DNA from: Planctomycetota bacterium
GTDB lineage: Bacteria > Planctomycetota > Planctomycetia > JALXBF01
NCBI GenBank assembly: GCA_026991575.1
Contig: JALXBF010000014.1
Coordinates: 11,467-75,466 of the forward strand
Direction of reading: 5' to 3'
Length of the DNA stretch: 64,000 nt
The position numbers and the translations under genes were made by a program. The notes below the pieces were generated by a model. The model was not told where the DNA came from and ran no database searches. It saw nothing but the letters and a program-made list of their open reading frames with translations. Shown here piece by piece: positions 7,752 to 60,751 of this stretch (position 1 is its first letter; the number at the start of each line of letters is the position of its first letter).

Positions 7752-7887
7752 GGCTAGCTTCTCCGCAATAGGCGCCTGTCCGCCAGCCCCTTGGCCGGCG
7801 CGCGGTTAATTATCCTAAGAGCTGACCCATACGCAGGTCCGCTCAGATGAGCGGCCGCTGGTGTCTGACGACCCGAAGGGTGGTGCC

Positions 7888-8241
7888 ATGGTCTTGATGG
7901 ATTTCAGCATCTTCCCCGTGGGCAAGGGCGAGAGTCTCAGTCCGTACGTGGCTCGGGTGGTGCGGATCGTGGACGAGTCGGGCTTACCTTACCGACTGCA
8001 CGCGATGGGGACGACGGTGGAAGGTGAGCTTGATCAGCTGTTGGATCTGCTTCGTCGCTGCTTTGCCGAGCTGCGCCGGGACTGCAACCGGATCGTGTGC
8101 CGAGTGTACTTCGATGACCGCAAGGGGCGGTCAGGAGCCCTGGATGAGAAGGTACTGAGTGTGGAGCGTCAACTGGGCAGGCACCTGGCAGGGGCCATCC
8201 ATGCGCCGAGCGCTCACACGAGCGAGTCGCCCGAGCAATAG
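7888..8241 (+). CDS. MTH1187/YkoF family (DUF77) thiamine-binding-like protein
   Basis: Starting at the ATG at 7888 (MVLMDFSIFPVGKGESLSPYVARVV..ESGL.Y.L..MGT..EG) gives the typical ~100-aa MTH1187 fold pattern. A GGTGG Shine-Dalgarno lies upstream. The ORF track's GTG at 7861 is probably too early. Confidence 0.6.
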   Translation: MVLMDFSIFPVGKGESLSPYVARVVRIVDESGLPYRLHAMGTTVEGELDQLLDLLRRCFAELRRDCNRIVCRVYFDDRKGRSGALDEKVLSVERQLGRHLAGAIHAPSAHTSESPEQ

Positions 8242-9533
8242 AGGCTTAGCGCCCGGTTGACCTGCTGGGGCAGGGCAGCGAAGTTGATGTGTACGATCGA
8301 TGCCAGGCAGTTCTTGCGGCGGAGTACGAGCGGCTGGCCGTTGCCGCGTGCTCGGGCCAGGACGTCAACGTCCTCCAGTTCGTCAAACCGCCACTGTCGT
8401 GAGCGGTAACCGCGATAGGGTGTGCCGGCCTCAAAGATCCAGCAATCGCCGGTGGGCTCAAACTCCACGCGTGTCAGTCCCGGCTCCGGTTCGTGCTGCA
8501 CCAGCGTGGCGGGCAGGATGCCGGTCATGGGCCAGGAGGAGCCATCGCTCAGGCGAACGTGTTGGCAGAGCAGTGCCGCGCCGGCGCCTTCGGCATACAG
8601 CGGCTTTCCCTGACGCACGTGCGCGCGCAGCGCTGACTGGATGCAGACGTTGTCGGCAAAGCGGCGGAGGTATTCGGGCGTCAGTTCGCCGGCACCGATC
8701 AGGATGACGTCGGCATCGGGGGGCAAAGTCTCGCACGACGCCGGGGCGAAATCCGTCACACAGGCACCTGCAGCTTCGAGCTCATCGAGTGCATCGGGCA
8801 GGTAACGGCAGAAGGCGTCGTCCCACGCGACCGCCACCGTCGGCCTTCGGCAGCTGAATCTCGGTTCGGGCGCAGGTGGCGGCATAGCGAACGGTCGGCT
8901 CTCGGCCAGGCGCACGAGCTGATCGATGCTGCTGAACGCAAGGAAGCTTTCTGACAGAAGCATGGCCAGGTTGTGGAGGCGGCGGCCGGAGTCGGGGTGG
9001 GTTCCATCGGGCTTGAGGGAGTTTGAGTCGATGCCGCCGAGCAGTGGACAGCAGCACCGTTCCAGCGCTGCCCGCTCCAGCTCAGCCAGCTTTTCCTGCT
9101 CGATGCCATCGATGAGGAGCCCGTCCACAGTCTGGCCTGGCGGCAGCGCAAGCGGCACGCGTGGGTCGACCACATCGTCGGCGGTTACGACGCCGAGCAC
9201 GGGGCAGTCAAGCGTGCGGGCAAGCTGCCAGACGCACTGCGGATCGGGCGCGTCCGGACAGGCCTCCACCAGGGCGATGTCTACCAGCGTCGCGGTGCGG
9301 GCGAAAACTTCGCGGCAGCGCTGGGGTCCGAGGATCCACAGATCGAGATGGCGGGTGGCCAGGCCGAAGAGCGGTCGCATGCAGTCGGAAGCTTCGGCAA
9401 AGGAGATGGTGCGGTAGAGCTGGGGCTGATAGCCGCTGCGCCCGAGTGCGGCCGCCAGGGCCAGGGTCATGGATCGGACATCAGCGTAGTCCGTCAAGGC
9501 GGCCAGCATCAGTCGGGGAATCGTATCCGTCAT
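8214..9533 (-). CDS. CobB/CbiA-like (cobyrinic acid a,c-diamide synthase homolog) with degenerate active sites
   Basis: 439 aa. Collinear similarity to CbiA/CobB in the middle (ARTLDCPVLGVV) and in the GATase region (DVILIGAGELTPEY..LRAHVRQGKPLYAEGAGAALL). However the P-loop GxGxGKT, the catalytic Cys of the ECGG motif (here EGAG) and the HEFH His are all substituted. Confidence 0.55.
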   Translation of the reverse strand: MTDTIPRLMLAALTDYADVRSMTLALAAALGRSGYQPQLYRTISFAEASDCMRPLFGLATRHLDLWILGPQRCREVFARTATLVDIALVEACPDAPDPQCVWQLARTLDCPVLGVVTADDVVDPRVPLALPPGQTVDGLLIDGIEQEKLAELERAALERCCCPLLGGIDSNSLKPDGTHPDSGRRLHNLAMLLSESFLAFSSIDQLVRLAESRPFAMPPPAPEPRFSCRRPTVAVAWDDAFCRYLPDALDELEAAGACVTDFAPASCETLPPDADVILIGAGELTPEYLRRFADNVCIQSALRAHVRQGKPLYAEGAGAALLCQHVRLSDGSSWPMTGILPATLVQHEPEPGLTRVEFEPTGDCWIFEAGTPYRGYRSRQWRFDELEDVDVLARARGNGQPLVLRRKNCLASIVHINFAALPQQVNRALSLYCSGDSLV

Positions 9534-10031
9534 CGCGGAGCCGACCTCCGCACGCGGCCCACGAGCGGGTTGTTTGGATCAGGGCAAGTGCCGCACGTCG
9601 CCGGACCCGCCCGCTGGTTGCCCGCCGCCAGCATGGACCCGCTCGCTCTGGCAGTAGCCGATCGCCTGGCCTGGTGTCTGGGGCGGGACGCCGTGCGGCG
9701 GACCGGTCCCTGGCCTGTGCAGCACGGCCTGCCGTTCTCACAAGCATCATATGCCACGCCACCCTACCGTCAAGCGAACGGGGAATCTCTTGACGCGGCG
9801 CGCAGCGTCACGTTAGGCTAGAACCGCTGTGATTGTCGACGGGCCGGTCGCTGTGCTGCTAAGATTCTCTGTGCCAGGCTATTCTCTCCGGGGTGCGCAC
9901 GGGTCCAACGGAGTCGTCTGCTATAGTTACTCTAGTGACAGCGCCGCCGCGCCCGTCGGTCGGCATGGCCTTCTGGTACCAGCATGAAAGGCGGAAACGC
10001 ACTTCGGTGTGCGAATCCTCGAGAGGTGGGA

Positions 10032-11687
10032 ATGGCGCTAGATCAGGATCGCAACGGGCACTGGCGACTTCTCTGGCTGGCCGCTGCGCTGGCCGTGCTG
10101 GTCGCGGCCCCGGCGCGGGCATCCGAACCAGGACTGCACGTACGGGAGCTGGCCGCGCTCCTGCTCCAGCAAGCCCAGCAAGGCACGGCCACAGACGACC
10201 AGAAAGCGGCGGATCAGCCCAAGCAGCCTGCCGATTCCTCGACCGACCAACAGCAGCAGGCCGACCAACAGTCGGGCGAGCGGGCCGAGGCCGAAGACGA
10301 TGAGGACGATGAAGAAGAACTGGATCCCATTGCCAAGCAAGGCATCCCAAAAGAGCCTTTACCTTCTTTTCGTCTTTTGGAGGCCGCGCCGCCGCTGGTG
10401 ACCGAACGGCCGAAGTTGGACGAGATGCGGCAGGTGCAGCTCATCCTGCGCCGCGGCCCGAACAACGACACTGAACGGCAGCTGCTGCGCAAGGTCGTCA
10501 GCTACCAGGTACTGCGGCTTAGTGAACCGCGGGAGTTCTCGCGGCAGCGCCGCAACCTGGAAGACATCGGCCGCATGCTCCAGCTCGCACGGCGCAACCC
10601 GAACACCTATGCCATCGTGCGCGACACGATCATTGAGTGTACTGCCAAGATGTTCCAGCACCATATCGTCTCCAGGGTCGCTGCTGGCATCGTACTTGGC
10701 ATGCTCGCCGACGAAGCTGCCCTGCCGTTGTTGGTCGAACAGCTCAACGATCCGAAGCAACACGAGTCGGTAAAGATCTGGTGCATCAAAGCGGTACGGA
10801 CCATCGCACTGGCCCAACCGGAGCTGAGGATCCGCAATAAGCAGTACGAAGAAGCGGTGCTCCGCGCGTTGCTGGCCATTCTGCGTCAGGAGCCTGCTCC
10901 GCACCTCTGGACTCAGCGTGAAATCATTCTGGCTCTAGGCGCCATCGGACGCCCGACCGAGGATCTGCTTGCTGGCGATGCGAACGTCGCCCGCGAGCTG
11001 GTGCTTATGCTCCGCGGCACGGGGCTGCGATCACGCGAAGGAACCGTGCCGGAAGGGCCGGGCCGTGCCGTTCGAGTGGCCGCAACCCGGTCGCTATCCA
11101 TGCTCATCATCCCCCCGACGCTGGACTACAACTTCCAGATTGTCGGCGCGGAAATCGCTCGTTTTGCGGTCGAGGCCACCTATGCCGCACTTCGCGACCC
11201 GCTCATCGATCGCCTCAAGAGCGACCTGTATGTCCGCCGCTGCTACTACGCGCTGGTGGTGTTGGCCGGTGATCCGCAGGCGACGACCACGGCGGCGCGC
11301 GAGGGGCTGGTTGCCCGTCATCCGCTGGCCACTCAGCGGTCCGACCCGCAGTACCTGCGGCAGTTGCGCGACATGGTCGGCGAGCTGAACCAGGCAATGC
11401 TCAGGGTCTATCGGCCATCCCCCGCCGAGGTGAACCCGAAGGACATACCTAAGGAACTGGTAAAGCGGGCAGCCTGGGTGCGAAACCGGCTGAAGGAGCT
11501 CCAGGTCGAAGCGATTGCCACGAGACTGGCACGCTTCCTGGAGCAAAACCCGCCGCGTGATGATGGCAAGCTGACGCCGGCCACCGCCCCCCTGCCCCCT
11601 CCCCCGCAGCTGAAACCGCCCACGGCCGAAGCGGTAGCAAGCGAGACCGACGACAAAGGGACTACGGACGGAGTGTCGAACCCGTAG
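10032..11687 (+). CDS. hypothetical secreted protein with an acidic/Gln-rich low-complexity linker and a HEAT/ARM-like helical repeat region
   Basis: ATG at 10032 with a GAGGTGGG Shine-Dalgarno upstream. Signal peptide (LLWLAAALAVLVAAPARA). D/E/Q-rich stretch, then repetitive helical segments. No recognisable catalytic motif. Confidence 0.5.
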   Translation: MALDQDRNGHWRLLWLAAALAVLVAAPARASEPGLHVRELAALLLQQAQQGTATDDQKAADQPKQPADSSTDQQQQADQQSGERAEAEDDEDDEEELDPIAKQGIPKEPLPSFRLLEAAPPLVTERPKLDEMRQVQLILRRGPNNDTERQLLRKVVSYQVLRLSEPREFSRQRRNLEDIGRMLQLARRNPNTYAIVRDTIIECTAKMFQHHIVSRVAAGIVLGMLADEAALPLLVEQLNDPKQHESVKIWCIKAVRTIALAQPELRIRNKQYEEAVLRALLAILRQEPAPHLWTQREIILALGAIGRPTEDLLAGDANVARELVLMLRGTGLRSREGTVPEGPGRAVRVAATRSLSMLIIPPTLDYNFQIVGAEIARFAVEATYAALRDPLIDRLKSDLYVRRCYYALVVLAGDPQATTTAAREGLVARHPLATQRSDPQYLRQLRDMVGELNQAMLRVYRPSPAEVNPKDIPKELVKRAAWVRNRLKELQVEAIATRLARFLEQNPPRDDGKLTPATAPLPPPPQLKPPTAEAVASETDDKGTTDGVSNP

Positions 11688-11693
11688 GACACC

Positions 11694-12347
11694 ATGAGCA
11701 AACCGCGGCCGGATCGCTCGGCGCTGGACGACGAGCTGTTGATGGCATCCGTCGAGGACGACGCGGTGCGTTTGCTCTTGGGCCGCTATGACGTACCCGC
11801 GTACGTGCGTCGCGGTCTTCGAGTCGAAGCGGCCATACGGGATTTCTTCGCGGATGCCACCCGGCTCTATCGCGAACTGCTCGAGCCTGTCCTCGCCTGT
11901 GCCCGAGCCCTCGCCCGCCAGCTGCCTGGGCCCGATGCCCTGGCATGTCACTTTCCCGAGCCAGGAGAACAGCATTTGATCCAGTCGCTTTACAGGACCC
12001 TCCTGCCCACCGCTCCGTGGCGCGGGTCCTCGGCCACGCACGCCCACCGCAGCGCGCACGCGGCGGCCGAACGGCTGAGAGCTGCTCTGGTACGTTTCAA
12101 CCGTCGGTGGCAGGCCCAAGTCGCTGAACTGGACTACGCGGCGGTGAACCGGGAAATCGACGGGTACAACCGGTACTACCTGATCGAGAAGGAGTGTGCG
12201 CTGCGGTCACGTAAGCTGGCGGCGCGCGGTTTTCGCCCACTGGAGCGGATCACGCCGGCAACCGTGCTTGAGCGGCTACCGATCCTGGAACCGGGTACGG
12301 CGGTCCCCGAAGACCTGGCTGAAAGCGACCGTTCTACGGGCCAGTGA
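11694..12347 (+). CDS. hypothetical protein, likely co-transcribed with the upstream gene
   Basis: 217 aa, beginning 7 bp after the upstream stop on the same strand. No family recognised. A larger antisense ORF (11094..12119) overlaps it and is judged spurious. Confidence 0.4.
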   Translation: MSKPRPDRSALDDELLMASVEDDAVRLLLGRYDVPAYVRRGLRVEAAIRDFFADATRLYRELLEPVLACARALARQLPGPDALACHFPEPGEQHLIQSLYRTLLPTAPWRGSSATHAHRSAHAAAERLRAALVRFNRRWQAQVAELDYAAVNREIDGYNRYYLIEKECALRSRKLAARGFRPLERITPATVLERLPILEPGTAVPEDLAESDRSTGQ

Positions 12348-29687: not shown

Positions 29688-30944
29688 ATGAACCAGACGA
29701 TCGAGCTCCCGTGGGGCAAATGGACTCACGAAAGCTCCCTGAAGCTGGCGGTGCCGGTCGACTGGCACGTTGAGCTCATCGACCCGGACAGCTCGCCGGC
29801 CGGTCCGTGCATCGAGCGCGCGCTGGCCGAACCAGTCGGCTCACCACCGCTGCGCGAGCTTGCGCGCGGAGCGGAGCGCGTCTGTGTGGTCGTCGAAGAT
29901 CCGGCTCGACCGACCCGCCTCGGGCCGATCCTTACTGCCGTGATGCACGAACTGTCCCGGGCAGGAGTGCCCACCGGCTCTGTGACCGTGCTCGTTGCCA
30001 CAGGTGCACATCGATGGGAAACCGACCGGATCATCTTCGAGAAACTTGGGCTGCCGGCCAACCGAACCAACAGCCCCGCGGTTGTCATCCATTCCCCGCA
30101 GGACTGCGAAAACACCGATATCGTTCTGGACAAGACCGCCGTCCGTCTGAACGGCCACTTTCTCCACGCCGACCTGCGCATCCTGATCGGATCGGTGATC
30201 CCCCATCCGTTTGCCGCCTACAGCGGCGGAGCCAAGATCGTGCTGCCCGGCATCGCAGACCTGGACAGCACTACCCACATCCACAAGATGGCGCAGCTGG
30301 GCGTCGGAATCACCAGCGACCCGGACACGAATCGGTTCCGCGGCAAGATCGAGGCAGCTGTGCTACGGCTCGGCGGTCTTTTCTGCATCTGCTGCGTGCC
30401 AACGATGTCGGGAGAAGTAGTTGGCTGCTGGGCCGGCGACCTGGTTGCTGCTCATCGTGCCGCGGTGGCCGTTGCAGCGCGCCGTTCCATGAGGCCGTTG
30501 GCGGAACCGGCCGATGTGCTGATCTTGAACGCGTATCCGAAGGATGTGGATCTGGTGCAGAGTCGCGCCGCGCTGGCTTGTCTGCCGAGAGCGGTCCACT
30601 CCGTGATCCGGCCAGACGGGATCGTTGTGCTCGTGACGGCTGCACCGTTCCAGGCACGCGGCCATGAGCTGTTCTCGCCCGGTGGTCGCCTGCACGGTGA
30701 GCCGCGGCTGGAGCAGAGACTCGCCGGCCACGAGCTCTGGTTGCTCACGCCGGCAGCTGAGGAAGAAGTGCGTGCCGTCTTCGGGCCGGGCTGTCGGGTG
30801 TTCAAAACTCCAGGGTCGCTCATCGAAGGGCTAGCCGGCCGGCTGCGGAATCGTGCACGGGTTGCGGTCCTGCGCTCCGCCCCTCTGCTCCGCCTTACCA
30901 GCCAACGTGCAGCAGCGACAGGGAACGAGCGTCGAGCCGGGTAA
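29688..30944 (+). CDS. LarA-like (lactate racemase N-terminal domain, DUF2088) family protein
   Basis: 418 aa. N-terminal domain pattern (VVVEDPARPT..LVATGAHR) and overall length match the LarA/DUF2088 family. The specific substrate is unknown. Confidence 0.45.
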   Translation: MNQTIELPWGKWTHESSLKLAVPVDWHVELIDPDSSPAGPCIERALAEPVGSPPLRELARGAERVCVVVEDPARPTRLGPILTAVMHELSRAGVPTGSVTVLVATGAHRWETDRIIFEKLGLPANRTNSPAVVIHSPQDCENTDIVLDKTAVRLNGHFLHADLRILIGSVIPHPFAAYSGGAKIVLPGIADLDSTTHIHKMAQLGVGITSDPDTNRFRGKIEAAVLRLGGLFCICCVPTMSGEVVGCWAGDLVAAHRAAVAVAARRSMRPLAEPADVLILNAYPKDVDLVQSRAALACLPRAVHSVIRPDGIVVLVTAAPFQARGHELFSPGGRLHGEPRLEQRLAGHELWLLTPAAEEEVRAVFGPGCRVFKTPGSLIEGLAGRLRNRARVAVLRSAPLLRLTSQRAAATGNERRAG

Positions 30945-31863
30945 GGCCGGCATCGAGCGCCGCTTCGATCGCCTGTTCGAACTCCTTGCGTGTGATCGTC
31001 CGATTCAGCAGCTCGTAGCGGGGTGCGCGGCCTTCTGGCCGGTACTGGGCCATGATGTTGACGTAGGTGTTCGGCGAGATCTCCTCTGCCAGGAATTTCA
31101 TGATCTCGCGCGTGCCGGCCAGGTTGTTGGGCATGACCAGGTGGCGGACCAGCAGACCACGGCGCGCGATGCCATCCGGGCCGATCTGCAGATCCCCCAC
31201 CTGCCGGTGCATCTCCTTGATGGCACGTCGTGCCACTTCCGGATAGTCGGCCGCTTTCACGGCCCACTTGGCCACGTCGGGATCCCAGAACTTGAAATCC
31301 GGCATGTAGATGTCGACGACGCCGTCCATCAGCCGCAAGCTTTCCAGACAGTCGTAGGCGCTGGTGTTGTACACGATCGGGAGCTGCAGACCACGTTGTA
31401 CGGCGTAGTACACGCCTTCCAGCACCTGGGGCACGACGTGTTCCGGGGTGACGAAGTTGATGTTGTGGCAGCCGCGGTCTTGCAGCTCCAGCATCATGTC
31501 CGCCAGTCGATCTGGTGGCGTTTCCCGCCCGATGCCTTCCCAACTTATGTCGAAGTTCTGGCAGAAGACGCAGCGCAGGTTGCACCAGGAGAAAAAGATC
31601 GTGCCGGATCCATTCCAGCCGCGCAGGCAATCTTCCTCGCCGAAGTGCGGGAAGTAGCTGGCCACGCGTGCGTACCGCCCAGTGCGGCACACGGCCCGTC
31701 GGATGTCGTTGTGCAGTCGATCCGCGTGGCAGTTGCGCGGGCAGCAGGTGCAATCCTCCAGTCGCGCGACCGCCACCGCGACGCGCCGCTGCAGCTCACC
31801 GCTGCGATACAGCTCCAGGTAGGCCGGATACGTGCCGGGCTGCTTGCGCCGGGGTTCGCTCAT
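30895..31863 (-). CDS. radical SAM protein, PflX-like (COG1313, pyruvate-formate-lyase-activase homolog)
   Basis: CNLRCVFCQN CX3CX2C cluster motif plus the family-typical HNINFVTPEH and Cys-rich N-terminus (CTCCPRNCHADR). Confidence 0.7.
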   Translation of the reverse strand: MSEPRRKQPGTYPAYLELYRSGELQRRVAVAVARLEDCTCCPRNCHADRLHNDIRRAVCRTGRYARVASYFPHFGEEDCLRGWNGSGTIFFSWCNLRCVFCQNFDISWEGIGRETPPDRLADMMLELQDRGCHNINFVTPEHVVPQVLEGVYYAVQRGLQLPIVYNTSAYDCLESLRLMDGVVDIYMPDFKFWDPDVAKWAVKAADYPEVARRAIKEMHRQVGDLQIGPDGIARRGLLVRHLVMPNNLAGTREIMKFLAEEISPNTYVNIMAQYRPEGRAPRYELLNRTITRKEFEQAIEAALDAGLTRLDARSLSLLHVGW

Positions 31864-52599: not shown

Positions 52600-55500
52600 C
52601 TACTCGATTATCTCCGAGTAAATCACCACCTTGCGCAGAATCTGTAGGAGCTCTTCTCGGGTCTGTGGTGGTCCGGCCCACCCGTCAGCTCTGCTTCGAT
52701 CAACGACAAAGAACGCCCTGTGACGCACAGGCACTCCCGCATCGGTGCCAATTTCATCGCCCACCATTGGCAAGGCCTCGTCCGCCTCGTCGATCTGGCC
52801 GTCCAAGTCGTTATCGCGTCCATCGAATAATCTCGCGCCTCGAGAGAACAGCGGCACGTATACCACGTCGGTACCCCTGTCGACGGTGTCGTCACGGTTG
52901 TTGTCTAAACCGTCGCCGTCCAAAGAGAGTTCGTCTTCCTCGTCAACCTCTCCGTCACCGTCGTTGTCCACTCCATCCAAGCGCGCAGCTGGGAACCTTG
53001 GCTCTGCGACTTCGAAGAATCCAACCGTGATCCAAACGGCGAACACGCTACTTCTGGTCGTGATAACGTTCCCCAGCCGACGCAAAGGATCGAACAGGTG
53101 ATACGGGTAGCTGTACCGGTTGGGAATGGTGTTCGTGGCTCCGGGCACCAGCCCCTGCCGGTCACCGTTGCTCAGCCCGGGCGGAGCCACAGGTCTCCGG
53201 TCCAAGAGCAGTTGGCCAGCGGGACCGGCTAGTGCGAGAATGGTGTTCGCGATCGGGGCAGAAAAGCTTCGGATCGGCCCCTGCTGACGGAGCTGGTTTA
53301 GGGACATCCATAGTGCGGACTGCTCCGGCGAAGTTATCCCGGCGATTTGCCCGTTACCTGTCTGGACCAGCGCTGCCGGATGATTATTGAGCAACGCTAA
53401 AAGAACCTCCGGATCCGTTACCGTGTTGATGTTGACTTTTCCGGGCACACGCCAGCGACGGCGATCGCCCCCCCCGCCGTCGGAATCTCGGGAACCGTTC
53501 ATCGGGCTTGGGACTTCAACGAGCTCGAGTAAACGATGATAGGTAGGGGCGCGATGCGTTGGGGAGGGCTGTTGCAGGAAGTTCCACATATAGCCGTACA
53601 TGACGTGAGCCACGGGGCCATTTCCATCGAACCCCCAGAACGGCGCCGCGACCCCTGCACCCTGGTTCCCACCCGCGCCAGAGTCGAGCTGCTCCCACTT
53701 CCCGATTTCCACTAGCACATTTGCTGGGGTCGGTAAGGGCACAAAGAAGTCGATCTGTTGGGCACCCTGGTCCGCTTCACTAAGAGCTCGGAACACCGTT
53801 GTCAGCAGCGGCGGAGAAATCGCCGGTACAAGGAAGAGGTCAATTGGGCTGTAGACGGGATGATCGAAAAACACCAGTGGGGTTTCAACCTGGCGACGGT
53901 TCGCATTGGGTGCCCCGAGGGTATGCGGGCGCGCATTCTGCCCGGCGCCTCCCGGGTGCGGTTCGTGGCGGGCGGAGTACGTTTCCACTCGCTCCATGCT
54001 CACGATCCTGTTCTGGTTGTTCTGGCCAGCGTCAGCGAGCCATACCTTGGCACGAAGCACATCCACGGTGATGTATGGATTGGACTGCGCGTCGTGCGGG
54101 TGGCCCGGATGGGCTAGTCTCTGCAGGTAGACGTACATTTCGCGCGTGTTCGGATCCAGCTGCAGCTGCACGCTCTGCGGCAACAGGTCGAGCTCGTAGT
54201 CGACGCGGTCAATGGGAACAGCAGCGCCCTGGGGCGGCGGCCCGAGCACCAGGTACTGGCCAGGACGCAGTACCGGCGGGGGAGTAGGAGCGTTGTCGAA
54301 GGTCACGGTGTACGCCGCCTGTGCGACTTCCCCGGTGATCTCATCCGTGCTAGGTTCCGTGGCCAGGACCAACCGATATACGCCAACGCGCGGTTCGCCG
54401 GCGCGATTGGGCAGGTACTTGTCGAGGGCAATCTCCTGGTCCGAAGCGTTGAACAGCTCGATCCACAGACGGTATTGCGTGGTCTGATTCTGGTTGTTAC
54501 CTCCTTGGTTGCCAATGGATTCCTCGTAAGCCAGCGTCTCGGATATAACAACCTTGGGCTTCTCCACGCCCCACACCACCATCCGATGGACCCCCTCGTT
54601 AGTGGAAAGATTCCCATCCACGTCCCAGCCGTCCAAGGGCCACAGATCAAACTCAAAACCGGTCATAACATCGTCGGGGTCGACGAAGTCTACGAAGTTG
54701 ACCGCATACTGAGCCATTCTTCGCACAAAGTCTTTCGCCGGACCGTCGCTGGTGACGTTGCCCTTCGTCCAGGTCTGCAGCACGTCATCAGGTACGATTG
54801 AAAGCCAAAGCGCAAGATACAGGTCCCGCGCCATGGCCCGAGGGTCGTAGGACGGATCGGGACGGTTTGGGGCAGGTGAGATCGCTGTGCTGGCCCAATA
54901 GGGGAGCTGGTCCCTTGCAGCCGGAGGCATGATCAGCGGGCGATGGAGGTTGAGTCGGCGCCCGCTAGCCAGTTCCATCGGGATCTGGACGTCATCGCTG
55001 CCGGCGCTGCCCAGCTCGGCGGCTTCGTCTACTTGGCCGTTGGTATTGTCATCGTGGAGCGCACGTCCGGGAAGCAGGTCGGCACCTGGATGCCAGACTA
55101 AGCCGTAATCGCCCGGGTCCATTCCGCCGTTTGCCGCCTGCCATTGCTCGCCGATCGGGAGAATCCCGGTCAAGTGTGTTCGCGTGTGCGCCGGCGGTCG
55201 GTTCGCTCCCGCTCGGAATCGCAGTTGCGAAAGTCCAGCAGCACCATCGGAGTTAATTCCGATGGGTGGCAAGCTTGGAACAATGACGTCCCAGCTTTCG
55301 GTCGTCAGCATCCAACGTCGCCGAAGGGCAACCTCAGGAAGATATGGGTCGAAGAGGGAAGGAGCGAGTCGGCTCAGGCGAGCCCGATCCAACAGCCCCC
55401 GCGTCCCGATATCCCCGTAACGGTACAGCAATGCCAGCTCCGAAACTGTGAAGGGCCGGTCTGGACCGGCCAGGTCGGTCCGGTAGACGTTAACTTCGTT

Positions 55501-57153
55501 GGCCTCGTCAAGGTTCTCGTAGGTTTCCTCGCCCAAGCTCGCATCCCAGCCTAGCGCAACGCCGCCCGAGCCAAATCTGGGTAGTGTACTCGGCAGGGTA
55601 ACCCAAGGCCCGTACAACAGGCGGCCTCGCTGGTCAACCCACACGGCCCCGTCCCCGTCCAGGTCCATTGGGGTTCCCGCTGTGAACCAATGTGGCGTAA
55701 CTGTGGTCGCATCCTCCCATGTCAGTCCCGTTTGATTTGAGCCCGGCGAGTATACGAGGGCCCTATAGGGCCGCCACCGCATACCAAGCAGCAGATCGCC
55801 TGACTGGAAACGCAGCATAGCCGGATCGGCGACGTCTGCTGCTTGGGGATACGGGCTAGCACCGTAGCCGACGTCGTCATCCATCGACCCGACTCCTGGA
55901 GGATCAAAGTAGCCGCCCCACCGGCCCGGAACGACTTGCCCGGTCGTAGGATCGAAGAATCCCCGTATAATCCGTGCGTATTCGTAGAGCGAATACCCGC
56001 CTGTGGCGTAGACCTGACGGAAAAACAGCGGATCTGGCGAAAAGACGTTCTGAAGATTCACCTCCGTCGGTGAGGCTCCCTGTCCCGCCGACACTAGACC
56101 CGGAGCAGACACTCGCTGGAGTGCCTCAGCCAGCGTTGTCTGCCGTGCGGGGCTCGCGTCAGGCGGAACCAACAGATGGTCTAGGTGACTGTCGACTAGA
56201 TCTCGATGTTGCTGTCCCTGCCTCTCAGCAGGGTCATCGGCCCGTCCGGGAACGCTGTCCTCGTTGAGCTGCCCATGCACATTCAGGTTCAGTTTGCTGT
56301 CAAGGTCCACAATGAGCACTGCCACCAACGGTTTGTAGAGCTTGCCATCTTGGGTACGAAGGAACGGCAGCCCAGCGTCGATCCAGAAACTGTCTCGGAC
56401 CCCGTCAAGGTCATTGTCGACTTCCAAGACCGGCCCATTTGGGTAGGCACTGACTGGGAATAGGCCAGGGGGGTAAAGTACCCGAGCCAAGACATCTGCT
56501 CCTGATCCACTCAGAGCCGGCCGATGGTAGCTAGGTATCACCGTCGTGTTTAGCGTATTGGTCGTCCGGTCGACGCTACGTGTGATCAAGGCAAGGAACA
56601 TGTTGCTGAGGTCGGGAGCATCGTAGTCTTCGTCGTGTTGTGTGTCCTGGCTCGGGTGATCCGGAGGCAGCGTCGTGAACCGTACACCCGGGGTTCTTCC
56701 ATTTAGTACGTAGTTCACCCTCGCATCGCGGGCACCTAGCCCATTGAACGCTCTCTGATACCGCTCGAACCACTGAATCTTCCCGTCCGGAATGGGGCGG
56801 CCCCGCTCGTCGAACAGGTCGTTATCCGAGCCGTACATGTCGCGCAGGAGTGAGTGGCCGCGTAGCGCAGAAGTTGCGTTATCGGTATCGGCCACGATTT
56901 GACCGAGCACTGCTTCGAAGAGTTCAGCTGGCTCAAGATCGGCAATCGTCCGGCGCACTAGATTCCCGTATTGCTCTGAGGCCGATTGCTCGGCACCCGA
57001 GAGAGCAACGAAAGTGACTGCTAAGACGGAGACGATGGCCAGCAGTGCCAGAACGACGATCAGGGCAATACCCCGTCGTCGGTGCGCTGCCATGCTGCGA
57101 CCCCCGTGTCGACTCCGCAAGAGAAGACTATCTGCGGCGTCAGCACGGCTCAT
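52600..57153 (-). CDS. giant (1517 aa) GspK-like pseudopilin-cluster terminal protein with C-terminal Asp-rich Ca-binding-like repeats
   Basis: The N-terminal RRGIALIVVLALLAIVSVLAVTFVALSGAEQ resembles GspK/PulK N-termini. The C-terminus carries repeated DxDxDG-type loops (DGVDNDGDGEVDEED, DGDGLDNNRDD, DGRDNDLDGQIDEADE). Its start overlaps the upstream gene's stop by 4 bp. Confidence 0.5.
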   Translation of the reverse strand: MSRADAADSLLLRSRHGGRSMAAHRRRGIALIVVLALLAIVSVLAVTFVALSGAEQSASEQYGNLVRRTIADLEPAELFEAVLGQIVADTDNATSALRGHSLLRDMYGSDNDLFDERGRPIPDGKIQWFERYQRAFNGLGARDARVNYVLNGRTPGVRFTTLPPDHPSQDTQHDEDYDAPDLSNMFLALITRSVDRTTNTLNTTVIPSYHRPALSGSGADVLARVLYPPGLFPVSAYPNGPVLEVDNDLDGVRDSFWIDAGLPFLRTQDGKLYKPLVAVLIVDLDSKLNLNVHGQLNEDSVPGRADDPAERQGQQHRDLVDSHLDHLLVPPDASPARQTTLAEALQRVSAPGLVSAGQGASPTEVNLQNVFSPDPLFFRQVYATGGYSLYEYARIIRGFFDPTTGQVVPGRWGGYFDPPGVGSMDDDVGYGASPYPQAADVADPAMLRFQSGDLLLGMRWRPYRALVYSPGSNQTGLTWEDATTVTPHWFTAGTPMDLDGDGAVWVDQRGRLLYGPWVTLPSTLPRFGSGGVALGWDASLGEETYENLDEANEVNVYRTDLAGPDRPFTVSELALLYRYGDIGTRGLLDRARLSRLAPSLFDPYLPEVALRRRWMLTTESWDVIVPSLPPIGINSDGAAGLSQLRFRAGANRPPAHTRTHLTGILPIGEQWQAANGGMDPGDYGLVWHPGADLLPGRALHDDNTNGQVDEAAELGSAGSDDVQIPMELASGRRLNLHRPLIMPPAARDQLPYWASTAISPAPNRPDPSYDPRAMARDLYLALWLSIVPDDVLQTWTKGNVTSDGPAKDFVRRMAQYAVNFVDFVDPDDVMTGFEFDLWPLDGWDVDGNLSTNEGVHRMVVWGVEKPKVVISETLAYEESIGNQGGNNQNQTTQYRLWIELFNASDQEIALDKYLPNRAGEPRVGVYRLVLATEPSTDEITGEVAQAAYTVTFDNAPTPPPVLRPGQYLVLGPPPQGAAVPIDRVDYELDLLPQSVQLQLDPNTREMYVYLQRLAHPGHPHDAQSNPYITVDVLRAKVWLADAGQNNQNRIVSMERVETYSARHEPHPGGAGQNARPHTLGAPNANRRQVETPLVFFDHPVYSPIDLFLVPAISPPLLTTVFRALSEADQGAQQIDFFVPLPTPANVLVEIGKWEQLDSGAGGNQGAGVAAPFWGFDGNGPVAHVMYGYMWNFLQQPSPTHRAPTYHRLLELVEVPSPMNGSRDSDGGGGDRRRWRVPGKVNINTVTDPEVLLALLNNHPAALVQTGNGQIAGITSPEQSALWMSLNQLRQQGPIRSFSAPIANTILALAGPAGQLLLDRRPVAPPGLSNGDRQGLVPGATNTIPNRYSYPYHLFDPLRRLGNVITTRSSVFAVWITVGFFEVAEPRFPAARLDGVDNDGDGEVDEEDELSLDGDGLDNNRDDTVDRGTDVVYVPLFSRGARLFDGRDNDLDGQIDEADEALPMVGDEIGTDAGVPVRHRAFFVVDRSRADGWAGPPQTREELLQILRKVVIYSEIIE

Positions 57154-59228
57154 TGCAACTCCTCCACGATAGTGATCTGCCTTGTTTCTCCGGTCGCCTC
57201 GTCGATGAACCGGATCGTTATTTGGATTGCCTTGAGGGGCAGCGGGTAGGGCATGGCGTAGGCTGTGCCACCTGCCCCGGGCTCAGTGGCCGGCAGACTA
57301 TAGACTGAGCACCACGTGTCATACGTTTGCCACAAGGACTGCGGCGGGGGTAAAAGCGTTGGGACGAATGCATCGGTGTAGGGGCTCTGCGCGTTCCTCC
57401 TGACGTATAGGCCCTGGAAGCCAAGCCACGGATACCCGAACCCTGGCCCACCGATCTCAACGGGCGATCCATTGGTCGATCCATTGCGAAGGCGGACCAC
57501 ATGACGAGGCAGGGGAGGCCACAGCCGATTCCGGTACGCCACGTGCGGTTCTTGCGGTGGAGGCGCGATTGTGTCCGCCGACAAGAGGGCGTCTGGCTGG
57601 ATGACCAACGGGTCCAGGGGCCATGGGGATAGAGCGATCATGGCCGTGTTCCATTCGAGGACGCGGTCGTTGAGGTTGCTTTCGCCAACCCAGCCGGCGC
57701 CGGGCAGTGGCCCAGGTGGGGGCCCGTTCGCCCCATAGGGATCCAGTGCTTGATATCCCAGGTCAACGAACGCGCCAGGGCCATAAGCACCTTGTTGCTG
57801 CGCCCCCAGGCTGGGGGCGCCGCCTGTCGGATCCCACACTTTGACATCGAAAGACACAACGTTTTGCAAGAGAACATCCTCTGCGGCCCGCAGGGGATCG
57901 GTTGCGGCCCCGGCGTTGCCAGGAGCCCATGGATCGAAGCGTCTTAGCCCACCGGGGAGGCGCAGCGCCGTTGTGATGCTCGGCGTCCATCGGCCTCCGG
58001 CGAACTGGTTCGGATAGTCCCAACCAGGCGCCGATGACTCGCGCAACGTCGGACGCCCCCACCAAATCTCCTCCGTGGCAGCAACGGGACTGCCTCCCCC
58101 TGGATACGGAACCCCAGCGCCACTGGTCGCATTTTCCCACGATCGGTCCCGAGTCGCTGCAGAATGGTCTAGGGTGTCATGGCAGCCATTCGGCAGCACT
58201 CTATCGTCGAATGACAATCCGACATCGCCTGTGGGCGTCGGACCGAACGGAAAGTTCGGGTCAGCGGGGCTGTCAGCAGCAAGGCCCGAAAGTAGGTAGC
58301 CAGCGGGTGCGGTCATGCCGTACCTTGTACTGCGGTATGTCAGGTCGCCTAGCGTGTTGACAACGGGAACGGTGCCGCCGACAGATGGGGGACGGGCTGA
58401 AATATCGTACTGCGCATACCAAGAAATCGCGGGGTTGTAGAAGGCGGCAGAGGGTTGAGGAGTGTCTACCAGTAGGACCCGCCGGTACAGCGTGCCCTGG
58501 CGGACAAAATAGATCACTTCGGCATAAGGCGAGCTGGTCAGTCCATCGTCTGGCGGAGGCAACGCTCGGTCAGGCTCACTGCCGGGCACACAGCGGCCTA
58601 TGTAGCCGGCCCACGGTTCTGGAGAGCGGCTCCCCGTGGCGGAGAGGCTCACTGTGAAGGCAAGTACGTCGTCGCCATCCTCGCCTTGCTCGTCGGCTGG
58701 GGAATTCTCCTCGATCATGAAGTACCCCGCGTTCTCCCGGGGATCTACCCCCACCGGCACATAGTACTCGATGTACACGTCGTCACTGCCTGGCGCGCCA
58801 AGCTCGTCTCGGTCGATGATAAACACTGTGCTCTGCCCGGGGCCCGCCTCGGGTATGAAATCTCGGTATCCGTCACCGTCGTCGTCGACTCCTGCTCTAC
58901 CGGGTCGCGAGTCCGGACCCGGAAGCCACCGGCCTACCTTGACCGCTCGTGGAGAGACCGACCGGATGGTACGGTGGCGGAGGTCGAAACGAAGGGTGGA
59001 CTCGACAAAACGGATGCGTTCCAGCAGCACGTGACTAGCGCGCAGCTGGCGTGCTGCATCTGACGCCATGCCGACGACCTGGCCGACGATGGCCATCATC
59101 AGCATTAGGAGCGCCACAGCGACGAGCATCTCGACGAGCGTCAGCGCTCGTCGGCTCCGCAGCGCCCCTCCGCTCGGCCACCACCTCCCAGAACCGACAA
59201 CATGTGTAATGGTCGGCGGATTCTTCAT
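57150..59228 (-). CDS. enlarged pseudopilin-like protein (~693 aa) with a class-III signal peptide
   Basis: ATG at 59228 in an ATGA overlap with the upstream stop. RSRRALTLVEMLVAVALLMLMMAIV prepilin-type motif. Internal GRAGVDDDGDGYRDF Ca-loop-like motif. Confidence 0.6.
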   Translation of the reverse strand: MKNPPTITHVVGSGRWWPSGGALRSRRALTLVEMLVAVALLMLMMAIVGQVVGMASDAARQLRASHVLLERIRFVESTLRFDLRHRTIRSVSPRAVKVGRWLPGPDSRPGRAGVDDDGDGYRDFIPEAGPGQSTVFIIDRDELGAPGSDDVYIEYYVPVGVDPRENAGYFMIEENSPADEQGEDGDDVLAFTVSLSATGSRSPEPWAGYIGRCVPGSEPDRALPPPDDGLTSSPYAEVIYFVRQGTLYRRVLLVDTPQPSAAFYNPAISWYAQYDISARPPSVGGTVPVVNTLGDLTYRSTRYGMTAPAGYLLSGLAADSPADPNFPFGPTPTGDVGLSFDDRVLPNGCHDTLDHSAATRDRSWENATSGAGVPYPGGGSPVAATEEIWWGRPTLRESSAPGWDYPNQFAGGRWTPSITTALRLPGGLRRFDPWAPGNAGAATDPLRAAEDVLLQNVVSFDVKVWDPTGGAPSLGAQQQGAYGPGAFVDLGYQALDPYGANGPPPGPLPGAGWVGESNLNDRVLEWNTAMIALSPWPLDPLVIQPDALLSADTIAPPPQEPHVAYRNRLWPPLPRHVVRLRNGSTNGSPVEIGGPGFGYPWLGFQGLYVRRNAQSPYTDAFVPTLLPPPQSLWQTYDTWCSVYSLPATEPGAGGTAYAMPYPLPLKAIQITIRFIDEATGETRQITIVEELQ

Positions 59229-60751
59229 CGGCCACCCACAATGGTTTGATACGCCATGACCGCACGGGGTAACAACACCAGTGCCCCAAGACCACCGCGC
59301 CCTTGAGTGGCTGCCCAGGGGCCTGCCCAGAGAGCCTCCGCGTCGCCCTCGATCACCACCCATAGGACTGGCCCCAAGTTTGGATCGGAAACTCTCACCG
59401 TTTCAGCCACGCGGTACACATACGCGTGCCTCGGAGCGGCCGCCCTCGAGTAGTCCCTGGGCGGCTCCTGACGGCCACCAAGATTCACGTACGTAGCATC
59501 CAGAACATACGAACCCTTCGGTATACGGAGCCCCTCGTTGGTGGCACGCGGTTGGAACGCACCATGGTTCCCAATAGGAATGCGCAGGACGTTAGCCGGC
59601 GCGTCGTCACTGCCGGGCCAACCCAGCTCCGCCCAATCAATAAGTCCCCGATCAATACGCCCGCTCCTGACGCGCGGCTTAAACACAAAGTCTGTGATGC
59701 CGTTGCCGTCGTCATCGACGCCGGCTCTGCCTGGGGCGCCGTCCGGGCCGACTGGAAAGACAAACGGCACGGTGACGGGCGGCTCTTGGAAATCCCGCTC
59801 TCGAAAGGCCACGATGGTTACTCGGAATGGGCCCACCGGAATGTCCGTTTCAAGCCCAGGTAGAAGTCCGGTGAGCTGATCGGGAGGTTCCTGCTGCGGG
59901 GCGGGCCCGTACTCACCGTCACTACCGGGCAAGTGCCATTCCTCGCCTGCGTCGCTGTCGGAATCGTTGCTCACGCGGTCATAATAAGCCGGCGCGAACG
60001 TCTGGCTGGTTTTTTGAATGATCGCGAACCATGTGTATCGGAGCTTCCTCGGCAATGTTCCCGGGGCATACAGAGGCCCCGACGTCGGCCTGAGGAATGC
60101 CCTGCTGCCGTAGGCAACCAGTTCGGCAGGTTGCGAAAGTCTGGCCTGGAATGGCAGATAGGGATAGTTCGGGTGCCAGTACAACCGATCGGGAGCCGAG
60201 AACATGCTCCGTGCCAGCACTCGGGCGGCGGCTAAACCGCTTTGGGCCTGCGCCCTCTGAATGGCGTATCCGCGATACCTTGGAAGACCGTGGTAGAGTA
60301 CTTGTCCTTGCGAGTCCTGCAATCTGCCTAGCCTTGTTTCATCCGGACATGGATATTCCGGAAGGGTGGCTAACGTGCTGTTCTCGAGAATTCCCAGCGG
60401 ATCAATCACCACCGGAATTCCCGGCCGTGCTCCCTCCACTAAGACCCACTCCACCTGCTGAACCGGGTCTCGCACCGTTCCGTCCGGCTGCACGGGGTCC
60501 GCGATGTAAGCATTCGCAATCGCCCCCCAAGGCGGGGCATACAGCGGCCCGGCGATCGAGATCGCTCGGGCAGTTCTGGCAAGAACCGCGCCTCTCGTGT
60601 CGTCTGTGGCCCGGCCCAGGCGTGCGAGCCCTACCGGGAACAGGGCCGCTAGCGAGATCAGTCCAACCGCCAGCAAGAACATGGCGATCAGTATCTCTAT
60701 GAGGGACAAGCCCCCTCGCTTTGTCCGGCAACTAAACGTTCGACCTTCCAC
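59225..60751 (-). CDS. enlarged pseudopilin-like protein (508 aa) with a class-III signal peptide
   Basis: GTG start. KRGGLSLIEILIAMFLLAVGLISLAAL prepilin motif (canonical Gly at -1). Internal GRAGVDDDGNGITDF motif shared with the downstream paralog. Confidence 0.6.
   Translation of the reverse strand: MEGRTFSCRTKRGGLSLIEILIAMFLLAVGLISLAALFPVGLARLGRATDDTRGAVLARTARAISIAGPLYAPPWGAIANAYIADPVQPDGTVRDPVQQVEWVLVEGARPGIPVVIDPLGILENSTLATLPEYPCPDETRLGRLQDSQGQVLYHGLPRYRGYAIQRAQAQSGLAAARVLARSMFSAPDRLYWHPNYPYLPFQARLSQPAELVAYGSRAFLRPTSGPLYAPGTLPRKLRYTWFAIIQKTSQTFAPAYYDRVSNDSDSDAGEEWHLPGSDGEYGPAPQQEPPDQLTGLLPGLETDIPVGPFRVTIVAFRERDFQEPPVTVPFVFPVGPDGAPGRAGVDDDGNGITDFVFKPRVRSGRIDRGLIDWAELGWPGSDDAPANVLRIPIGNHGAFQPRATNEGLRIPKGSYVLDATYVNLGGRQEPPRDYSRAAAPRHAYVYRVAETVRVSDPNLGPVLWVVIEGDAEALWAGPWAATQGRGGLGALVLLPRAVMAYQTIVGGR

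Follow-up and report, generated by a model that had tools for sequence, protein, structure and literature searches.

What does an enzyme homolog do once the residues that its relatives use for catalysis are gone and the gene is kept all the same? The question is raised by a gene at positions 8214..9533 (minus strand) of a 64-kb stretch of DNA from a Planctomycetota bacterium (GenBank assembly GCA_026991575.1, contig JALXBF010000014.1), the whole of which we refer to as the window. The gene, here called pCobB, encodes a 439-amino-acid (aa) protein derived from CobB/CbiA, the cobyrinic acid a,c-diamide synthases. A first-pass annotation, made from the letters of the window alone, had described it as a conserved pseudoenzyme or scaffold in which all catalytic residues are lost. 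We find that pCobB is a pseudoenzyme in the operational sense: it is a clear homolog, key catalytic residues are missing, and the gene is under purifying selection. To judge from sequence comparison, it is a member of an unnamed, order-wide, planctomycete offshoot of CobB/CbiA. The analysis covered the 64-kb window of the source genome and, at other loci, flanking sequence of no more than 10 kb.

Homology to CobB and the state of the catalytic motifs

The pCobB family profile was compared with a profile of canonical CobBs using hhalign, which returned a probability of 100 and an expectation value (E) of 5e-62 over 428 collinear columns. Homology to CobB is therefore certain and the alignment is unshifted, in agreement with the earlier description of the protein as collinear with cobyrinate a,c-diamide synthase. 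The peptides cited in that description lie at aa 105-116, 275-288 and 310-322. In Pfam, the glutaminase domain GATase_3 (PF07685) is recognized at aa 232-419 (E 1e-11, 45.3 bits vs a cut-off of 27), and the N-terminal nucleotide-binding domain, CbiA (PF01656) or AAA_26 (PF13500), finds no match in pCobB at E<=1. Precomputed Pfam assignments divide in the same way, with PF07685 only in family members and PF01656 plus PF13500 in canonical CobBs. The CobB equivalog of NCBIfam (NF002204) matches aa 57-418 with E 1.3e-31 and 109.9 bits, vs a cut-off of 254. The second-best full-length NCBIfam model is that of CfbB (NF033195), which matches aa 9-423 with E 2.4e-20 and 72.8 bits, vs a cut-off of 560; TIGR00379 gives 60.9 bits vs 261.4. 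Members of the mainstream clade described below score 170-176 bits against NF002204 and its cut-off of 254, and every member tested falls below that curated cut-off (110-176 vs 254 bits). The gene and the motifs discussed in this section are as follows.

8214..9533, minus strand: pCobB gene, an intact 439-aa open reading frame (ORF), CobB/CbiA-derived, without P-loop and without nucleophile Cys
8859..9533, minus strand: remnant of the N-terminal dethiobiotin-synthetase-like domain, aa 1-225, collinear with the canonical N-domain and without a Pfam CbiA or AAA_26 match
9468..9497, minus strand: degenerate Walker-A site, aa 13-22, LTDYADVRSM (canonical SSGSGKTTVA), from alignments
9336..9353, minus strand: RHLDLW motif, aa 61-66 (canonical RNLD), the best-conserved motif of the N-domain
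8277..8840, minus strand: C-terminal GATase_3 domain (CobB/CobQ-type class I glutamine amidotransferase), aa 232-419, from Pfam and Foldseek
8685..8699, minus strand: putative oxyanion-strand equivalent IGAGE, aa 279-283 (canonical GGGFPE), by homology to class I glutamine amidotransferases
8580..8597, minus strand: nucleophile elbow YAEGAG, aa 313-318, with G316 in the catalytic Cys column, from alignments
8400..8414, minus strand: RGYRS, aa 374-378, in place of canonical RGHEFH, from alignments
8289..8291, minus strand: H415, retained equivalent of the glutaminase dyad/triad His, from alignment to PdxT

The ATP site of the N-terminal domain has gone. Both hhalign and MAFFT set the canonical (A)PSSGSGKTT opposite (A)LTDYADVRS, so that the replacement of Walker A by LTDYADVRSM reported in the annotation is borne out. 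No Walker A was found elsewhere in pCobB, and GxGK[ST] occurs in 0/210 full-length family members in a joint alignment of sequences from the profile search and genome scan described below. The same two methods place the canonical FK-GPDYIDP opposite YRTISFAEASDCMRP. The family consensus also has neither the K nor the GPD of this segment, and its loss is thus seen in the clade of the window protein as well as in the consensus.

The glutaminase nucleophile is likewise missing. Canonical AEC(A/G)G aligns opposite AEGAG, and PdxT GTCAG, aligned independently, falls on the same site; the substitution of the ECGG Cys by the Gly of EGAG had been read correctly. Across the 210 members this column holds Gly in 170, Cys in 18, Ser in 11 and Ala in eight (81%, 9%, 5% and 4%, respectively), and the thiol nucleophile is gone from 91% of the family, the window protein included. 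Profile alignment puts no intact P-loop or Cys anywhere else in pCobB. At the middle position of the IGAGE strand, which we take by homology as the oxyanion strand, the family has Cys in 84% of members and the window protein has Ala (281); the flanking G280 and G282 are conserved.

The fate of the His residues is different. Canonical RGHEFH lies opposite RGYRSR in pCobB, much as the annotation had placed YRGYRS over the HEFH region, and the first His of HEFH corresponds to the Y376 column, which is Tyr in 207 of the 210 members. H415, in SIVHINF (canonical SYLHxH), belongs to a family segment 'GSrvHlnF' that aligns to PdxT 'GCSFHPE' about 100 residues past the nucleophile. GatD, a GATase_3 enzyme, has its catalytic residues C94 and H189 about 95 residues apart (PMC5871853), and the assignment of H415 as the dyad His fits GatD because the spacing matches. 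On these alignments HEFH is best read as a conserved CobB motif and not as the site of the dyad His. The claim that all catalytic residues are lost consequently stands for the P-loop and the nucleophile Cys, and fails for H415. The dyad His column is His in 157 of the 210 members (75%), and hence not universal.

Because the P-loop, the FK-GPDYID segment and the thiol nucleophile have been lost, pCobB would be incapable of ATP-dependent, glutamine-dependent amidation of tetrapyrroles. A protein that still works as cobyrinate a,c-diamide synthase, or as a CfbB-like enzyme, would have to take up free ammonia and bind ATP in a non-canonical manner. Full-length collinear homology, the retained dyad His and the Cys present in 9% of members speak for such an enzyme. 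Against it stand the disappearance of the P-loop and FK-GPDYID segment from 210/210 members, the scores of 80-145 bits under the curated equivalog cut-off, the name 'hypothetical protein' given to one member by NCBI, and the lack of any cob context in the window or the loci examined. We regard continued CobB or CfbB function as very improbable.

The genomic context was also searched for a connection with B12. There are no cob/cbi genes among the Pfam-scanned ORFs of the window (most of its large ORFs), and no canonical cobB within its 64 kb. Rfam gave no match for the window, for the region at 9400-10100 upstream of the gene (E<=1) or for seven related loci, and there is thus no cobalamin riboswitch at any of them. 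Within the window and these loci, a B12 link for pCobB was rejected on both counts. A role in defence was rejected as well, since neither pCobB nor its two divergent neighbours has a PADLOC match.

The predicted structure agrees with the two-domain assignment. An AlphaFold2 (AF2) model built from a shallow alignment has two alpha/beta domains, with a mean predicted local distance difference test score (pLDDT) of 82.5 and a predicted template modelling score (pTM) of 0.82. Its weak segments are aa 46-56, the old GPDYID region (pLDDT <50), and aa 175-184. Foldseek matches to pCobB are GatD, PdxT, HisH and CTP synthase (E 1e-12 to 1e-9). Those to GatD have E values of 4e-12 to 1e-10 and a template modelling score (TM) of about 0.65 on the target. 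CTP synthase gives full-length two-domain alignments but a poor global superposition (TM ~0.37, root-mean-square deviation ~16 Å). Searches of PDB sequences returned only the PdxT and GatD glutaminases (E ~0.006-0.02), and CobB, CbiA, CfbB and CobQ chains in the PDB were matched neither by the single protein nor by the family profile. A solved structure from which to model a CobB-type synthetase domain may accordingly be absent.

Breadth, descent and selection of the family

A word-indexed search found four close relatives only (76, 66, 45 and 37% identity), all of them with PF07685 alone and the same substitutions. A profile search of 1.84 billion cluster representatives returned 4130 matches, 522 of them at E<1e-30. 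Among the 150 highest-scoring matches (200-465 bits), about 145 are without a P-loop and start 'PRLA(V/I)GTVQPxADxxP..WALL'; the first canonical CobB, recognized by GVGKT, appears at 197 bits. One genome per GTDB species was then scanned with two family-specific peptides, CYFPDTLD and RHLD[SPA]W[LI]M.., starting from a 9-sequence subset, as the 40-sequence alignment (A3) was too diverse. The taxa recovered are skewed toward mainstream Pirellulales because this subset was used. The scan confirmed 164 loci in at least 164 species genomes. The best 80 of these 164 matches are all Planctomycetota, mostly metagenome-assembled genomes of Pirellulales, Pirellulaceae, Thermoguttaceae, Blastopirellula or Rhodopirellula. 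Orthologs that share these substitutions are thus plentiful (210 aligned, no P-loop in any, at least 164 species genomes), and the size of the family goes well beyond that of an oddity in one lineage.

Two kinds of match were set aside. Small 'pCobB-like' ORFs at four loci (L019, L075, L081 and L090) are shadow-frame artefacts. A 1021-aa metagenomic protein (P0152) joins DUF4347 adhesin-like repeats to a pCobB C-domain (YAEGGGAAYLCQ...); a chimeric contig or gene call, and not a real fusion, probably accounts for the join, and the protein was not used. No Pfam or NCBIfam model is dedicated to the family, and literature searches, including full-text searches, found nothing relevant on it, on a dead CobB or on B12 auxotrophy in Pirellulales.

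In a rough neighbour-joining tree that included five canonical CobBs, the 210 members are monophyletic with respect to these. A clade made up of the window protein plus seven relatives (the window clade) is sister to a mainstream clade of 202 tips. The tree also bears on the 18 P-loop-less members with Cys at the aa-316 column, 14 of which have the dyad His too. These members are nested and scattered, requiring at least 10 state changes, and the basal branches are without Cys; we therefore rejected the idea that they are an ancestral active subgroup. Such a distribution suggests that the nucleophile elbow tolerates small residues (G, C, S, A). The scattered Cys316 members may reflect this tolerance or a recurrent regain of the thiol.

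Whether the gene is decaying was assessed from its reading frame and its rate of substitution. The ORF starts with ATG and has no possible upstream extension, the start being the first start codon past the preceding stop. The N-terminus MTD(T/S)IPRL is common to pCobB orthologs and gives the same start as in the window protein. This shared start and the ORF listing agree with the annotated intact ORF of 439 aa. GC content at third codon positions (GC3) is 0.78, the usual value for genes of the window. Against the 76%-identical ortholog, the Nei-Gojobori ratio of nonsynonymous to synonymous substitution rates (dN/dS) is 0.16 (dN 0.17, dS 1.07), and it differs little between the N-terminal (0.166) and C-terminal (0.153) halves; with dS near saturation in this comparison, the ratios are approximate. 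Neighbouring genes give 0.07 (LemA), 0.15 (a HEAT-like protein), 0.17 (a 217-aa protein without a family match) and 0.18 (an M48 peptidase), and pCobB lies within their range and far from the value of about 1 that a decaying gene would give.

A decaying pseudogene or an annotation artefact would account for the missing catalytic motifs and for the divergence of pCobB from the relative P0004, which is the largest among the syntenic genes. This explanation is refuted. The ORF is uninterrupted in the window-clade orthologs examined and in 80/80 genome loci, over 40 positions reach a conservation of 90% or higher among members at ~30% identity, and both dN/dS and GC3 are those of ordinary genes. 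Decay of pCobB is excluded. The annotation's view of a conserved pseudoenzyme or scaffold, and not a decayed gene, is supported by the orthologs, by the 0/210 P-loops and by the dN/dS of 0.16.

Conserved residues and the use of the former pocket

The conserved positions fall into two groups. Those common to canonical CobB include R61, L63, D64, G91 (of VEG), A234/A236 and P271, together with G280/G282, N295, A314-E315, G318, R374-G375 and S412; the Glu of VEG (E90 in the window protein) is kept in 67% of members. The family-specific positions are Q38, H62, W66, C73, Y244, E253, C297, Y313, W365, Y376 and W381. Conservation at these reaches 99% for Y376 and W66, 97% for W365, 95% for Y313, Y244 and W381, and 94% for C297. 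The most conserved parts of pCobB are the glutaminase-pocket loops and the RHLD-W motif of the N-domain. In the loops these are D238, G280/G282, N295, Y313-A-E315, G318, R374-G375-Y376, S412 and H415; in RHLDLW, L63 and D64 are invariant, and R61 and W66 stand at 97 and 99%. There are in addition eight family-specific Cys columns (73, 105, 125, 190, 243, 281, 297 and 323), occupied in 60-94% of mainstream members, most of which hold 6-8 of them. In column 281 the Cys takes the place of the middle Gly in the GGG strand, which shapes the oxyanion hole of class I glutaminases. Of the eight, only three are held by the window clade (C73, C297 and C323), with Ala at 281 and Arg at 243.

pCobB keeps the fold of its ancestor, a dethiobiotin-synthetase-like domain followed by a CobB/CobQ-type glutamine amidotransferase domain. 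The ancestral machinery, comprising the whole P-loop, the FK-GPDYID segment for ATP and substrate, and the glutaminase thiol nucleophile, has been lost. We propose that the former active-site pocket would now bind a small ligand or a partner protein, and that pCobB would act as a sensor, regulator or scaffold and no longer as an amidotransferase. That the former glutaminase pocket serves ligand or partner binding in one of these roles is the explanation we favour, with a moderate degree of confidence. The pocket is probably still used, because its loops and the RHLD-W motif are the most conserved residues of the protein.

Several points weigh against this proposal. The predicted inactivity, and with it the presumed 'non-catalytic' role, is read from motifs that are missing. 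The dyad His is present in 75% of members and a Cys at the nucleophile position in 9%, and some residual or lineage-specific glutaminase activity is conceivable. A conserved pocket and eight Cys columns would fit a new catalytic or metal site equally well. Moreover, the neighbourhood offers no partner: the neighbours in the window are not found near distant members, and those of mainstream members are housekeeping genes. Because the pocket is the best-conserved part of the protein and new invariants have arisen, a new role in ligand binding or catalysis is no less plausible than that of a passive scaffold.

The same residues could instead belong to a neofunctionalised enzyme that carries out a different, ATP-independent reaction in the old glutaminase pocket, or the pocket could contain a metal or redox centre formed by the cysteines peculiar to the family. 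The new catalytic set would be recruited from Y376, Y313, H415 and E315, with C243, C281 and C297 added in the mainstream clade. The case for it lies in the near-invariant family-specific residues at or beside the active-site loops (Y376, W66, Y313, Y244, C297, W365 and W381), in the substitution of C281 for the middle Gly of GGG in 84% of members, in the eight Cys columns of which most members hold 6-8, and in the equal constraint on both domains. A Cys-based site cannot be family-wide, because the window clade keeps three of the eight cysteines only, with Ala281 and Arg243, and no operon partner or pathway context points to a substrate. C281 and Cys316 occur together in 17 members and are thus not mutually exclusive, which likewise tells against the nucleophile having simply moved. 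Migration from 316 to C281 was rejected as a simple account on this ground and because the window clade has neither Cys. Neofunctionalisation remains a real alternative that we hold to be clearly less likely than binding. Somewhat more speculative still is the idea that the family is no passive relic but a new functional class that uses the CobB scaffold. Its pocket would be rebuilt around Y313, Y376, W365 and W381, joined in mainstream members by C243, C281, C297 and C323, to give a metal or redox centre or a sensor that detects glutamine or a metabolite of the tetrapyrrole type, and it might serve as a core housekeeping regulator peculiar to planctomycetes.

Pseudoenzymes are often regulators of their active paralogs. 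pCobB could in this way be a dead regulatory paralog that pairs or competes with an active CobB/CbiA or another amidotransferase from a gene elsewhere in the genome and so modulates cobamide or tetrapyrrole synthesis, which is a special case of the regulatory role proposed above, with a defined partner. In its favour, the fold is kept, as are surface or substrate motifs conserved across CobBs, namely RxLD, VEG (E90 in 67%), D238, N295 and P271. Neither a cob/cbi gene nor a B12 riboswitch was found close to pCobB, whether in the window or at the related loci covered, and we consider this special case unlikely.

Gene neighbourhood, known relatives and significance

Two genes flank pCobB in the window.

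7861..8241, probable start 7888, plus strand: gene for an MTH1187/YkoF-type thiamine-binding protein of 117 aa (Thiamine_BP, E 3.5e-26)
9984..11687, plus strand: gene for a HEAT-like protein of 567 aa, divergent from pCobB, function not assigned

The thiamine-binding-protein gene is convergent with pCobB and overlaps its 3' end by 28 bp, as the annotation had stated. The same 28-bp convergent overlap occurs at the loci of 76%-identical orthologs (L010-L012), and is absent in L001 and at the locus of the 66%-identical ortholog (L007), whose two genes are separated by 2 bp. The HEAT-like protein is the divergent neighbour across the window clade, at 55-72% identity, and leaves a weak trace by the 37%-identical relative (L006). 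By eye, it has a hydrophobic N-terminus resembling a signal peptide, and it contains an acidic low-complexity stretch. The gene for the 217-aa protein without a family match follows it (9984-12347 for the two, plus strand), and the pair is conserved across the window clade. The order in this clade is the HEAT-like gene (547-567 aa, with the 204-217-aa unknown), divergent; pCobB; the convergent MTH1187-type gene; a BD-FAE esterase; LemA; and the M48 peptidase. It is kept down to 45% pCobB identity. Among the syntenic genes compared with P0004, pCobB is the most diverged, at 45% identity vs 50-71% for its neighbours.

None of the window-clade neighbours was found within 6-10 kb of 80 mainstream members. 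The mainstream block consists of a divergent RNase III, an HtrA/DegP gene on the same strand as pCobB, pCobB itself, and then PdxJ-DapA or MgtE. At 53 of the 80 loci there are HtrA-like ORFs no further than 6 kb from pCobB, mostly directly upstream and on the same strand, with a gap of ~260-320 nt in the two loci inspected. The HtrA/DegP-type protease of the mainstream loci (L013-L092) carries a signal peptide and two PDZ domains. Housekeeping neighbours of this kind suggest vertical inheritance of a core gene, and they suggest no pathway. As the neighbours in the window are restricted to its clade and the mainstream block is one of housekeeping genes, the neighbourhood was rejected as a clue to function.

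Elsewhere in the window, GC content falls from ~0.65 to 0.60-0.61 and GC3 from ~0.8 to 0.66-0.69 between 52192 and 63793. Minus-strand ORFs of 1517 aa (52600..57153), 737 aa (57150..59363) and 508 aa (59225..60751) lie in this stretch, the latter two without a Pfam match, and it may be a horizontally acquired island. A LarA-like gene (Lar_N, 29688..30944, plus strand) is convergent with a radical-SAM gene (30895..31863, minus strand) and overlaps it by ~50 bp. The window comes from an uncultured planctomycete and also encodes a DUF1559/N-methyl protein. For its PRPP synthase, the best named relatives belong to metagenome-assembled genomes of Planctomycetes, Pirellulales and Isosphaeraceae, at 69-74% identity.

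pCobB appears to work like nothing yet characterised, and its kin are CobB/CbiA first, followed by CfbB, CobQ and GatD. It is equal in length to CobB/CbiA and has the same order of two domains over the 428 collinear columns. Both contain RxLD, VEG, A-x-D-x-AF, LP, GxG..PE, N295, AE-x-GG, RG and a C-terminal S-x-x-H. It differs in having no P-loop, FK-GPDYID or nucleophile Cys, in the change of HEFH to RGY, in family scores of 110-176 bits vs 254, in the lack of cob-gene or B12-riboswitch context, and in the family's own invariants (W66, Y376, C297, Q38 and Y313). CfbB, the Ni-sirohydrochlorin a,c-diamide synthase of F430 synthesis in methanogens, shares the CobB-type architecture with pCobB, which it matches over aa 9-423. 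The score of 72.8 bits vs 560, the absence from pCobB of the same catalytic motifs, and the restriction of the family's best 80 genome matches to Planctomycetota set the two apart.

The other relatives are similar in the glutaminase domain. Like the C-domain of pCobB, CobQ/CbiP and GatD, the latter from the MurT-GatD amidotransferase of lipid II, belong to GATase_3, and the layout in GatD is a Cys/His dyad that has no triad Glu (PMC5871853). C94 and H189 are retained in GatD, which has the separate ATP-dependent ligase MurT as its partner, whereas pCobB has Gly in place of the Cys and a fused N-domain without a nucleotide loop. Class I triad glutaminases such as PdxT/Pdx2, whose alignment to pCobB fixes the Cys and His columns, are by contrast active single-domain proteins with an intact Cys-His-Glu triad. 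Ammonia-dependent carbamoyl-phosphate synthetase I has an inactive glutaminase-like domain that retains the class I amidotransferase fold without the nucleophile Cys and, like pCobB, is maintained by selection in a role other than that of a glutaminase. In that enzyme the dead glutaminase-like domain sits within an otherwise active synthetase, whereas the synthetase domain of pCobB is also without its ATP site. The whole of pCobB would thus be 'dead' for the ancestral reaction.

The subfamily is new in that no curated family, solved structure or publication was found for it, and its recognition has a practical consequence. The cbiA/cobB gene is in use as a marker of cobamide producers, and the JGI labels the pCobB family as such (PMC6461909). 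If the family were counted as cbiA/cobB, many planctomycetes would be taken for B12 producers in error. In biological terms, pCobB is a selected, single-copy gene at the level of an order, in which both catalytic centres are disabled, the fold and pocket are kept and new invariants have been added. It is a clean natural case for the repurposing of a 'doubly dead' two-centre enzyme.

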